Assembly: GCA_963664815.2 (NCBI GenBank)
Contig: CAXXHB010000003.1
Coordinates: 2,848,001-2,912,000, forward strand
Direction of reading: 5' to 3'
Source of the DNA: Spirochaetota bacterium
GTDB taxonomy: Bacteria > Spirochaetota > UBA4802 > UBA5550
DNA length: 64,000 nt
In this document: positions 7,017 through 58,826 of the stretch, piece after piece
How the letters are laid out: each line of letters begins with the position of its first letter
Position numbering within the stretch: position 1 is the first letter of the stretch
Made by a program: the position numbers and the translations under genes
The notes under the pieces: model-generated
What the model was told of the DNA's origin: nothing
Seen by the model: the letters and a program-made list of their open reading frames with translations, nothing else
The model's database searches: none

Positions 7017-7445
7017 TTATACTGTCTTGAGAACCATTTTAATCATTTTGTAATTATGATTCAAACCACTTACAAGAGCATTATATCTCATCATGTTTTT
7101 TGAAGAATCAACCATCTCTTTCTCAATATCCACGTTATTTCCGTCATTTCTATATGTAGTACTGTAATCAAGATTAATTCTCGGTTCAACAGACCGAACA
7201 TCTTGATCAATGGAAAATGGTATATGCCTTTCATCTGTCAGAATAGCAGGAAGCTTCTCCGCATTCCTGGAATTGCTTTTTATAGCTCTGTTGAGTTCAC
7301 TTTCGAAATTCACTTCACTTCTTTTGAAATGAGGAACATCATTATTTGCAATATTATCTGCTATTACCTTTTTTCTCAATGATTCAACATCAAGAGATTT
7401 TTCTAAAAGATAATTTGTACCCATCATGCTGCTTGCTTCGAACAT
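7017..7445 (-). CDS. flgB: Flagellar basal-body rod protein FlgB
   Basis: VIADNIANNDVPHFK and RNDGNNVDIEKEM motifs; GAGG RBS before the ATG at 7445. Confidence 0.96.
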   Translation of the reverse strand: MFEASSMMGTNYLLEKSLDVESLRKKVIADNIANNDVPHFKRSEVNFESELNRAIKSNSRNAEKLPAILTDERHIPFSIDQDVRSVEPRINLDYSTTYRNDGNNVDIEKEMVDSSKNMMRYNALVSGLNHNYKMIKMVLKTV

Positions 7446-7645
7446 ATCCAACCTCTTAAAATAAACCTATCTACCTTCATATTCGGTAAAATTAAAAATT
7501 CCATAAGCACTTTTTTTTATGAGACATAACTTTTTTAAGTTATTAAAGAGAGACACCATGCAACATAAACACAAACCACATAAAGCTGGCAACAACCCAC
7601 ATTTTTAAACCGGCGGCATCACAACAAAGAAACCAGTTTCGAGCT

Positions 7646-7753
7646 TAAACCTGTTATAAGTATAATTCTGTACACGATTACAGGATTTAAGGATTTCCTG
7701 CGGATAGAGGTATCGTACACCAACGTTATCCACGTTGGGCATCAACAGGTTTA
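7646..7753. mobile_element. MITE-like element (108 bp)
   Basis: 10-bp terminal inverted repeats TAAACCTGTT / AACAGGTTTA. Its left 51 bp recur at 58556-58606 (46/51 identical by eye). Confidence 0.5.
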
Positions 7754-7813
7754 TGATCAACACCACTGCAGATTTATGATAAAAACCAGACTCTCTTTAC
7801 AGAAAAGTCAATA

Positions 7814-7925
7814 TCGCTTTAATTTCGTTTCAATTCCGCCTCAAACACGCTAATGACAGCTATAAACGCGTGTTTTTCTCTGCCGGTAACGGAGTTGAAA
7901 CGGTATTGAAACGGTTTTTAACAGG
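7814..7925. repeat. Two head-to-head arrays of four 11-bp phased repeats (approx. YCGTTTCAAYW)
   Basis: Plus strand: tcgctttaatt, tcgtttcaatt, ccgcctcaaac, acgctaatgac (7814-7857). Minus strand: cctgttaaaaa, ccgtttcaata, ccgtttcaact, ccgttaccggc (7925-7882). 24-bp spacer between them. Confidence 0.6.
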
Positions 7926-8399
7926 GTCTTCATACTGCTGAAACACCGTTTTGGCAGATGAGTCTCTCTCTTTTACTGCATTTGTATCATTCTTTCTATT
8001 TTCTGTTTTGCTGTTTTCAGGACATGAGATTGTATAATATGTATCTTCACAGGGAGATGATACACCCACTGCACCTTCTGTTACACTGCTTCCAGATGGA
8101 GATACCGGTGAACCTGGTGCAATACCACGAAGGTATTCCGACATAAAGAGATTGTACCCTGCTTTCTTCTTTCTCTTTGCCCTGTTTTTGTAAAGTGTCT
8201 TCTCCTCCTCCGGGAGTACCTGCCATGCCTTTACGCTGCCGCTGAAATTACCCCTGCACTTCACCTGTGGTTCTGTACGGGGATTCCTGGGAATTGTGCG
8301 CCTTTTAATGTAGATCTTTCCATATCGTCTGTAAAGCACAAGACCGTCCAGGCCTCCATGTGCAGTTCTTAAATAGGGATGAAGCTTTACTTTTGCCAT
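7860..8399 (-). CDS. Basic hypothetical protein, putative nucleic-acid binding, with HMG-box-like helices and a low-complexity tail
   Basis: AAGGAG RBS before MAKVKLHPYL at 8399. The N-terminal ~90 aa are K/R-rich and include PRNPRTEPQ, AWQVLPEEEKTLYKNRA and GYNLFMSEYL. Confidence 0.7.
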   Translation of the reverse strand: MAKVKLHPYLRTAHGGLDGLVLYRRYGKIYIKRRTIPRNPRTEPQVKCRGNFSGSVKAWQVLPEEEKTLYKNRAKRKKKAGYNLFMSEYLRGIAPGSPVSPSGSSVTEGAVGVSSPCEDTYYTISCPENSKTENRKNDTNAVKERDSSAKTVFQQYEDPVKNRFNTVSTPLPAEKNTRL

Positions 8400-8590
8400 A
8401 CATCTACTCTCCTTATTTATTATTATTTTTTTATTGTTATATTGAGATTTATGTCTCTTATAGCCAGTCCGGAAAAGCAAATGACATGGGGCAAGCAGAA
8501 TTTTTAAAAATTTCAGGATTGGTTTATAAGCACAGTATTTAAGTCCACCTCCGGGGTATTTAAACAGGTGAGTTTATCAGATAATGTACT

Positions 8591-8650
8591 CCGAAGACCA
8601 TGGGCGCCGCACTGGACCTGTCGAAGTGTGAGAAGGCTTAGTGGTTACGG
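8591..8650. repeat. Degenerate REP-like palindromic element
   Basis: Imperfect hairpin with core CGCACTGGACCTGTCGAAGTGTG; a related core, CAGTGAGCCTGCAGAACTG, lies near 23718-23736. Confidence 0.35.
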
Positions 8651-8751
8651 CTGCTTAAGTGTACTATATCAACAACGGTGTAATGAACGACAGGCCGAAG
8701 GATTTTATGTATATAATGATTATGTTTCATCAATAAAGAGAAAAATCTTAA

Positions 8752-9405
8752 TTATTGTGAGAGAAGTAGAAATGCGAGTTTTTCAGGACTCTCTATCATG
8801 TATGTTGGTTCAGCTTCCTCAAGTTCAACCTTTTCACCATACCCGTATAAAACTGCAGCTGAATCAATCCCGTGATGCTTCGCTCCCTCAATATCGTATC
8901 TGCGATCACCGATCATTATTGTTTCAATCAACCTATCACTACCGATTCGGGGGATAAGCCTGTTGATAAGATCGACTTTAGCACTCATAGAACCATCCAT
9001 GTTGCTTCCTGATACATAATCAAAATAGTTTACTATCTCAAAATGTTCAAGAATCCGAAGTGAAAACTCCAGAGGTTTAGATGTAGCCACATACAGGATA
9101 CTGTTACTCTTTTTCAATTCAATCAACAAATCTCTTATCCCGGGATATAGCTGATTCTCATAGATTCCCTTTTCGGAGAAATACTCACGGTAATACCTTA
9201 CAGCCTCTTCAGCATCCTCTTTATCAAAACCATAATAAATGCCGAATGATTCGCGCAATGGAGGTCCGATAAATTTATACAAATCATGCCGATTGGCGTC
9301 TATACCAAATTTTTTCAGGGCATACATTATTGAGTTAGTTATACCTAGCCCTGGATCTGTAAGAGTTCCATCAAGGTCAAATATTATATATCTGTATTTT
9401 TTCAT
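8752..9405 (-). CDS. HAD-superfamily hydrolase (phosphoglycolate phosphatase/5'-nucleotidase-like)
   Basis: Motif I FDLDGTLTD, FIGPPL, VATSKP and motif IV MIGDRRYD. Confidence 0.9.
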   Translation of the reverse strand: MKKYRYIIFDLDGTLTDPGLGITNSIMYALKKFGIDANRHDLYKFIGPPLRESFGIYYGFDKEDAEEAVRYYREYFSEKGIYENQLYPGIRDLLIELKKSNSILYVATSKPLEFSLRILEHFEIVNYFDYVSGSNMDGSMSAKVDLINRLIPRIGSDRLIETIMIGDRRYDIEGAKHHGIDSAAVLYGYGEKVELEEAEPTYMIESPEKLAFLLLSQ

Positions 9406-58555: not shown

Positions 58556-58606
58556 TTAAACCTGTTAAAACTGTAATTCTGAACACGATTACAGGATTTA
58601 ATGATT
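58556..58606. repeat. Second (partial) copy of the 7645-7695 dispersed repeat
   Basis: TTAAACCTGTTAAAACTGTAATTCTGAACACGATTACAGGATTTAATGATT; 5 substitutions relative to copy 1. Confidence 0.7.
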
Positions 58607-58826
58607 GCCGGTACTAGATGTTTAGGAATTGTAAACTAAAGTACTCTATAGCCCCTGTCTGATTTGGCAGAGGGCCAATATATGTAAACCCCAAGCTCTG
58701 AGTAATTTCCAGTGTAATTTTCCTGAATCCAGACAATTACACTCTAAAAGATTCTTAATTTTTTACTTGACTCCAAACAGTAAATATAATTTTTAAATTT
58801 ATTCAATAAATTTAAAGTGTGGTATT

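Follow-up and report, generated by a model that had tools for sequence, protein, structure and literature searches.

The locus and its phased repeats

The window analyzed here is a stretch of 64,000 nt from a Spirochaetota bacterium (assembly GCA_963664815.2, contig CAXXHB010000003.1, positions 2,848,001-2,912,000 of the forward strand), and coordinates given below without a contig label are positions within it. Flanked by flgB and an ORF for a HAD-type hydrolase is a minus-strand ORF of 179 amino acid residues (8399..7860), the 3′ end of which overlaps two arrays of short repeats. On the plus strand there are CG dinucleotides at 7815, 7826, 7837 and 7848, and the minus strand has CCGTT units beginning at 7914, 7903 and 7892, followed by a fourth, degenerate unit, with CCGTT-N6-CCGTT occurring twice in register between 7888 and 7914. 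Together the arrays make up an imperfect inverted repeat, one arm each, which yields a hairpin of ∼110 nt covering the final ∼25 codons of the ORF; a repeat search reports arms of 29 nt (7810-7838 and 7890-7918) that are 76% complementary, and TRF reports just 1.9 tandem copies (7895-7915). Read on its own strand the inverted arm contains TCGCT, TCGTT and CCGCC, and the CCGT core is absent from it.

Much of this had been described in an earlier note on the same DNA, and its CG positions and 11-bp units agree with the window in both coordinates and sequence. The pattern CG-N9-CG-N9-CG-N9-CG has a single match in the 64-kb window, at 7815-7849, compared with 0.04 expected from shuffled sequence (at least one match in 4 of 100 shuffles), and the 11-bp periodicity is not readily attributed to chance. 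The very basic core of ∼90 residues is also evident, with 23 K+R and six D+E among residues 1–95 (pI 10.5) and a near-neutral remainder, and the overlap of the gene with the array takes the form of ∼25 final codons lying in the hairpin, preceded by a tail that is predicted to be disordered. The statement that no transposase or integrase is nearby holds for the 5.5 kb examined.

Organization of the cassette

The ORF lies within a dispersed repeat unit of ∼0.94–0.95 kb, defined by BLASTN, of which the window copy occupies 7585..8526 and consists of a leader, the ORF, and a 3′ structured region, all on the minus strand. Alignment of the 29 full copies identifies a conserved 5′ leader (8400..8513) with a Shine-Dalgarno-like AAGGAG ahead of the ATG; the homology has a sharp 5′ border at ...AAAATTTTTAAAAATTCTGCTTGCCCC, and no sigma-70 consensus promoter is called within the leader. 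The ORF itself has three parts. Codons 1–95 (8115..8399) encode the basic N-domain, as delimited by AlphaFold2 pLDDT, pN/pS and the coverage of homologues, and are followed by a fast-evolving tail of predicted disorder (codons 96–∼159, 7921..8114; pLDDT 50–56, and delimited also by pN/pS). Codons ∼160–173 (7880..7920) double as the 5′ hairpin arm of the sense strand, which has three 11-nt units, CCGTTTCAATA, CCGTTTCAACT and CCGTTACCGGC.

The apical part of the hairpin (7851..7879) contains a small AAAC/GUUU stem, the sequence AAACGCGTGTTT (7864-7875) and the TAG stop codon of the ORF (7860-7862). The 3′ arm (7810..7850) is non-coding, and its 11-nt units pair with those of the 5′ arm via fixed U-G wobbles; in the window copy it has one unit more than in 23 of the 40 copies in this genome. 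To the 3′ side of the hairpin is a small stem-loop, GACUUUUCUGUAAAGAGAGUC, followed by a U-run (7776..7809), a weak terminator-like element in the predicted fold that is not called by a consensus terminator scan; there are two alternative sequence versions of it among the copies, and both fold. The remaining segment, the distal 3′ domain (7585..7775), has a predicted multi-branch fold closed by AAACCUGUU/AACAGGUUU, ends near ...CCAGTTTAAAAAT, and is present in 16 of the 40 copies. The sequence TTTAAAAAT is found at both borders of the cassette. We note that a 54-nt fragment elsewhere in the window (58556-58609) is 89% identical to a part of the distal 3′ domain (7645-7698).

Copies within the genome

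The genome (5.2 Mb in three contigs, 38% G+C) was searched by BLASTN with window positions 7301-8900, and hits of at least 250 nt were counted as copies. This recovers 40 copies, 29 full-length and 11 with the 3′ part alone, with a common stretch corresponding to ∼7585 to ∼8513/8526 of the window; the earlier note missed both this dispersed repeat of ∼40 copies and the insertion relative to congeners described below. The full-length copies encode paralogues sharing 71–91% amino acid identity, 28 of the 29 having no internal stop in a six-frame search in which C-terminal fragments are also found, and nothing else protein-coding is common to the copies. The 3′-only copies retain the last ∼30–55 codons together with the 3′ region, and have unrelated DNA upstream and differing 5′ break points (window 7948-8027).

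Each of the 40 copies is located between genes, with diverse upstream neighbours and, in 30 of them, a co-oriented downstream gene. They occur singly, dispersed over three replicons or contigs, chromosomal and plasmid, and no two share more than 87% DNA identity. The gene and its phased repeats had been proposed to form one module, and the link between them is kept throughout (40/40 copies). The paralogues also provide the strongest support for the 11-nt unit being real: the hairpin segment is 140 nt long in 23 copies, 151 nt in 14, 139 nt in two and 129 nt in one, and these differences are mostly of whole 11-nt units, the number of which varies in each arm independently.

Insertion relative to congeners

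Comparison of the locus with related genomes had been suggested as a check, and it reveals presence here and absence in six of seven congeners. Using the flgB upstream region (to 7536) and the end of the HAD-type gene (from 8718) as flanks, the two conserved flanks are 1181 bp apart in this genome and 65–224 bp apart, with the element absent, in the six; for the seventh (G002) the left flank alone was found in the stretch fetched. Judged by these flanks, the window copy is an insertion relative to six congeners. The 179-residue form has no close homologue in these congeners, the best hits being ∼40% identical over the N-domain. Three further copies are located at synteny breaks, where the flanks are not syntenic in the congeners, and no more empty sites were obtained from them. 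Short contigs from four public DNA runs, broken at the repeat, contain no empty-site joint.

The spacer between flgB and the HAD-type gene has features of its own. In the congeners (L028-L033) it contains one to four palindromic, REP-like units (GGCTCTGACCCC / GGGGTCAGAGCC), and it is bracketed by a genus-conserved inverted pair, GAGACATAA ... TTATGTCTC (window 7520-7540 and 8718-8745).

The N-domain family

An exhaustive HMMER search yields 767 cluster representatives at E≤0.001, nearly all matching over residues 1–∼95 and mostly 140–155 residues in length. Residues R49 and W59 are invariant, and G15, R32, P37, N39, P40, T42, Q45, F52, G81, N83 and S87 are near-invariant; no His- or Asp-rich catalytic pattern is seen among the conserved residues of the family. 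An AlphaFold2 model built on 97 sequences contains a beta-hairpin (residues 20–33) and three helices (43–61, 64–76 and 81–91) in the N-domain, with pLDDT of ∼82–97 over residues 1–90, and predicts the tail to be disordered. No longer fused forms of the protein were found; a 537-residue open frame in one relative, considered as such a form, is read-through antisense to a chemotaxis-receptor gene.

Resemblances to described families are weak. The best Pfam matches are to DUF6266 (PF19781; 16.8 bits against a cut-off of 23.4, E 0.005, residues 37–92) and to HMG_box_2 (13.6 bits against 22.4, E 0.11, residues 53–80), both under the curated cut-offs. DUF6266 is matched at E≤0.01 by 7 of 97 family members; a six-frame search of the genome gives no match to it, as is also the case for the controls, and no paper mentioning the family was found. 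The core had previously been read as HMG-box-like, and the comparison does not support this: the HMG-box models (PF00505 / PF09011) score below the Pfam cut-off, any HMG model is matched at E≤0.01 by just 3 of 97 members, the PDB profile match to TFAM covers one 24-residue helix (E 0.0028), and an HMG box is absent among the structural matches listed. Foldseek against the PDB and BFVD finds nothing at E≤0.001 (best E 0.1), the rows for bL36, Arc and VapB (probability ≤0.35) being weak and taken as chance, and an exhaustive VIA structure search gives no convincing fold relative (best Z 3.8), with ribbon-helix-helix proteins at Z 3.0 and 2.8. PHROGs, NCBIfam and PADLOC have no family for the 179-residue protein, and a tblastn search of 50,697 phage records has no match. 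The nearest clusters in the ESM Atlas are mostly viral and unnamed (score 0.94), which we regard as a lead only. Taken together, the domain of ∼92 residues appears to represent an uncharacterized family with a nucleic-acid-binding-like character.

Selection on the protein and on the nucleotides

Rates of substitution were compared among the 18 gap-free copies of the 29, the other 11 being dropped for differing ORF length. In the N-domain (codons 1–92) pS is 0.49 and pN 0.063 (pN/pS 0.13), in the tail (codons 93–150) the values are 0.33 and 0.21 (0.62), and in the hairpin codons (151–179) they are 0.15 and 0.093 (also 0.62). When all 29 copies are used, pN/pS of the N-domain is 0.11 over 25 nearest-neighbour pairs and 0.07 in the three most similar pairs (pS below 0.2); pS is in no pair lower than 0.107, and near-identical pairs are absent. 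These ratios indicate that the N-domain is under strong purifying selection in every lineage, recent comparisons displaying no relaxation, and that the tail (codons 93–150) is relaxed.

The hairpin codons behave differently from either of these, with pS falling to 0.096 at codons 161–170 versus 0.49 in the N-domain. Because pS is low and the ratio is unchanged, the constraint on these codons is at the nucleotide level and not at the protein level. In the ORF-less copies, divergence is 0.14 in the units of the 5′ arm and 0.34 in the distal 3′ sequence.

Strand preference of the hairpin

In 39 of the 40 copies the more stable predicted fold is that of the sense strand (mean −39.1 kcal/mol, versus −29.6 for the antisense strand), and a hairpin with at least 20 inter-arm base pairs is predicted in 37. 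In our reading of the predicted fold, each 11-nt unit corresponds to nine base pairs plus a 2-nt internal loop that holds the first C of CCGU. When pairs are tabulated on the named structure there are 1288 Watson-Crick, 223 G-U and 42 A-C cells, but a double change is present in just 5 of 43 hairpin pairs, and the G-U excess derives mostly from three fixed positions inherited by all of the copies. Because covariation is weak and the G-U excess has largely this origin, the strand argument is suggestive and is no proof. RNAalifold finds almost no consensus on gapped alignments, because 11-nt indels shift the register. In Rfam the best row is a miRNA-precursor-like hairpin at 28.7 bits, against a gathering score of 100, and searches with three other copies return none.

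The array in distant homologues

Within the same order, 19 of 41 genomes contain a match to the protein, with up to 17 matches in one and often several diverged copies, and across the phylum, with no more than 13 candidates scored in each genome, there is a match in at least 22 of 301 sampled genomes. The distant homologues share 35–45% identity and are multi-copy in several related genera, and the distribution of matches, up to 17 per genome, points to independent lineage-specific bursts in these genera. A second expanded subfamily (G034) has a repeat unit composed of a ∼80 nt leader, the ORF, and ∼20 nt beyond it. We fetched 51 distant loci, and the ORF was recovered in 49.

Several patterns emerge from these loci. 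First, the tails contain a motif, S-V-S/T-x-P, whose Ser is encoded by TCC at all 27 Ser-Val sites of the conserved position in the 49 loci; among all 29 tail Ser-Val sites there are 27 TCC and two TCA codons, compared with 41 TCC among 328 Ser codons in the N-domain, and the Pro of the motif is CCG in the instances listed. Secondly, the density of CCGT is 8.5/kb in the tails, 3.4/kb in the N-domains and 2.6/kb downstream, with no enrichment of the antisense ACGG in the tails (2.9/kb). Thirdly, among 43 pairs of CCGT no more than 40 nt apart, the spacing is 11 nt in 28 and 22 nt in seven. Finally, at one locus (L056) encoding a protein of 100 residues that ends just past the N-domain, three CCGT motifs 11 nt apart are located in non-coding sequence ∼50 nt beyond the stop codon. 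From the TCC codons, the enrichment of CCGT and not of ACGG, the 11-nt spacing, and the L056 arrangement, we conclude that the signal is one of nucleic acid, strand-specific and phased, which travels with the N-domain.

The array, as recognized by this motif, is not universal in the family, the strict peptide motif being present in 23 of 108 tailed representatives, versus 1.7 expected from shuffled tails. The direct 11-nt phasing of CCGT is kept in the homologues of other genera, which answers the concern that homologous genes might lack arrays. The head-to-head arrangement that had been described fares less well, being conserved in the subfamily of this genome but undetectable in the distant loci: a downstream duplex is stronger than the upstream control in 10 of 22 (mean z −0.5), and in 33 of 37 the more stable fold is that of the antisense strand, a preference that we read as base composition rather than structure. 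Because the distant homologues have an array without a detectable partner, and because their antisense strand folds better, the hairpin is not the family-wide functional form.

Comparison with known systems

The cassette resembles several described types of element, without coinciding with any of them. The cassette is like members of the IS200/IS605 group in its very small size, its multiple copies, which are old and diverged, its single short ORF, its lack of terminal inverted repeats, and its imperfect pairing into a hairpin that is specific to one strand. However, IS200/IS605 hairpins are at both ends, whereas that of the cassette is internal or subterminal and on the 3′ side only, with none comparable found at the 5′ border, and the HUH/Y1 domain (PF01797) is absent from the protein (Pfam) and from the genome, although it has matches in 6 of 14 control genomes. 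In TnpB/IscB genes the 3′ end overlaps the omega-RNA, a structured element that also occurs alone in the genome, and the cassette gene likewise overlaps a conserved structured element that is also found alone; here, though, the protein has 179 residues and no Pfam nuclease domain, and there is no matching Rfam family. Integron gene cassettes contain a short ORF followed by attC, an imperfect inverted repeat folding on one strand, and this general layout is shared. The copies described here differ in being single and dispersed, each with a leader, rather than in arrays beside an integrase.

The ParR-parC partition system also offers a parallel, as it includes a small DNA-binding protein with a flexible C-terminal part and short direct repeats of about one helical turn, ParR of plasmid R1 needing at least two 11-bp repeats (PMC9426499). 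Direct repeats of this kind are present here, CCGTT-N6-CCGTT occurring twice in register. But parC is upstream of the plasmid parM-parR operon, whereas the array of the cassette is inside the 3′ end of its own gene; there is no ParM or ParA gene nearby, there are ∼40 dispersed copies, and the resemblance to the ribbon-helix-helix fold reaches Z 3.0 at best.

A putative protein and recognition-array cassette

The locus carries a previously undescribed, amplified and self-contained cassette that joins a conserved basic domain to a phased CCGT array, the array being placed at the 3′ end of the gene for that domain, and we regard this anatomy as solid. The amplification is lineage-specific, the cassette has its own leader and ribosome binding site, and in this subfamily there is a non-coding inverted arm opposite the array. 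Modelling of the transcript strand suggests that it can form a hairpin of ∼110 nt with 9-bp helices and 2-nt internal loops, one per helical turn.

We tentatively favour an interpretation in which the cassette combines a protein with an array that this protein recognizes, probably on the mRNA strand, the mechanism being inferred from the sequence. The N-domain would recognize the phased units of its own cassette, most probably as mRNA, and the protein would bind to the 3′ end of its own transcript. Such binding could provide autogenous control of transcript stability or termination, or could mark the RNA in cis, and the 11 3′ copies that lack an ORF could be targets in trans of the proteins from the 29 full copies. 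Because the protein has no recognizable catalytic domain, spread of the cassette to new intergenic sites must rely on an activity supplied in trans, by the host or otherwise. A caveat is that S-V-S/T-x-P sits in a fixed reading frame, and a peptide-level role is possible.

An 11-bp period is equally compatible with A-form RNA and with sites lined up along one side of a B-DNA helix. A somewhat unlikely alternative is that the array is a double-stranded DNA site at which the protein binds one phased unit per turn, either in a complex like those of centromeres, iterons or recombination sites or as a roadblock where its own gene ends. The phasing and the head-to-head arrays are real, the N-domain is very basic with weak local similarity to HMG-box helices and to ribbon-helix-helix proteins (the Z 3.0 and 2.8 matches), the repeat requirement of R1 ParR (PMC9426499) gives a precedent, and partnerless extra units in one arm are expected of sites rather than of a stem. 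But such a site does not sit easily with an inverted arm lacking CCGT on its own strand, with enrichment of only the sense-strand motif in distant loci, or with an array placed at the 3′ end of the gene, away from the promoter; moreover, no partition ATPase or replication gene is beside the copies whose upstream neighbours were listed, and the 40 copies are both chromosomal and plasmid. We consider it unlikely that this is an ordinary expanded family of small nucleic-acid-binding regulators, with the hairpin serving as an mRNA stabilizer or terminator and the repeats arising as a by-product of slippage without specific recognition. Purifying selection on every copy, as for host genes, the co-oriented downstream genes, the small stem and U-run after the hairpin, and the slippage-like 11-nt steps in unit number all fit such a family, whereas the persistence of the CCGT core and its exact spacing at 35–45% N-domain identity, where the hairpin is undetectable, and even in the non-coding position at L056, does not, and neither do the insertion of the window copy relative to six congeners nor the existence of ORF-less 3′ copies.

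Mobility raises two further explanations. The cassette could be a non-autonomous mobile element, its 3′ hairpin recognized or cleaved in trans by a recombinase, transposase or reverse transcriptase, its ORF encoding an accessory chaperone, and its 3′-only copies derived from 5′-truncated or one-ended insertion; we judge this quite unlikely. The 3′-part copies with their varied break points and unrelated upstream DNA, the strand-specific hairpin, TTTAAAAAT at the two borders, the bursts in different genera, and the copies at synteny breaks are as such an element would have them, and the genome has three RVT_1 matches above the Pfam cut-off (C3:3195077-3195739, 1364617-1365141 and 3836806-3836985). 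However, none of these is linked to a cassette copy, nor is any recombinase, a Y1/HUH transposase is absent from the genome, there are no identical or near-identical copies and no definable target-site duplication, and the 3′ border varies, with the distal domain in a minority of copies (16/40). Also to be set against the interpretation that we favour is that every copy is under strong purifying selection and that near-identical pairs are absent, which is unusual for an actively transposing element. It is more speculative still, and in our view improbable, that the cassette is selfish but enzyme-less, with the protein recognizing the phased CCGT array on its own transcript in cis, so that a polymerase or recombinase, of the host or borrowed, would copy the cassette into new intergenic sites; just as improbably, 3′ parts without an ORF would be carried along non-autonomously, in a bacterial counterpart of RNA-marked, 5′-truncating retro-insertion.

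If the protein does bind to its own phased array, as in the interpretation that we favour, the two would constitute a compact and widespread domain-site pair without annotation (with 767 cluster representatives in public data, and multi-copy in several genera of one phylum), and such a pair could serve as an orthogonal tether. The C-terminal ‘low-complexity tails’ of the family are partly dictated by a nucleotide-level signal. The cassette explains a family of assembly-breaking repeats, and it presents the puzzle of how ∼40 intergenic sites were reached without a recognizable recombinase while every copy is under strong purifying selection.

Sequences associated with cassette copies

Some additional features are found near to the cassettes or related to them. 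A 105-bp unit with small G+C hairpins (e.g. GCCCGGAAGGGGC and TACCCCAAGGGTA) is present in 1–3 tandem copies directly upstream of ∼12–15 cassette cores (e.g. at C3:1974794-1975083), and is nearly absent outside of cassettes, save for ∼50-nt pieces on contig C1. In three copies (C3 2570614, 2783396 and 2131365) a 508-residue IS-like ORF is situated between the 105-bp unit and the core, with an identical start in the three places (first 70 residues compared), pointing to an insertion sequence directed at this position. There are also four distant paralogues of the N-domain in the genome (C3:3060745-3061359, C1:39134-39829, C3:1105066-1105662 and C3:498055-498390), sharing 22–40% identity with it. 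In two of them (204 and 231 residues) the C-terminal part looks, judging by sequence, to be rich in beta structure and takes the place of the disordered tail, and one distant paralogue is 0.9 kb from a full cassette copy.
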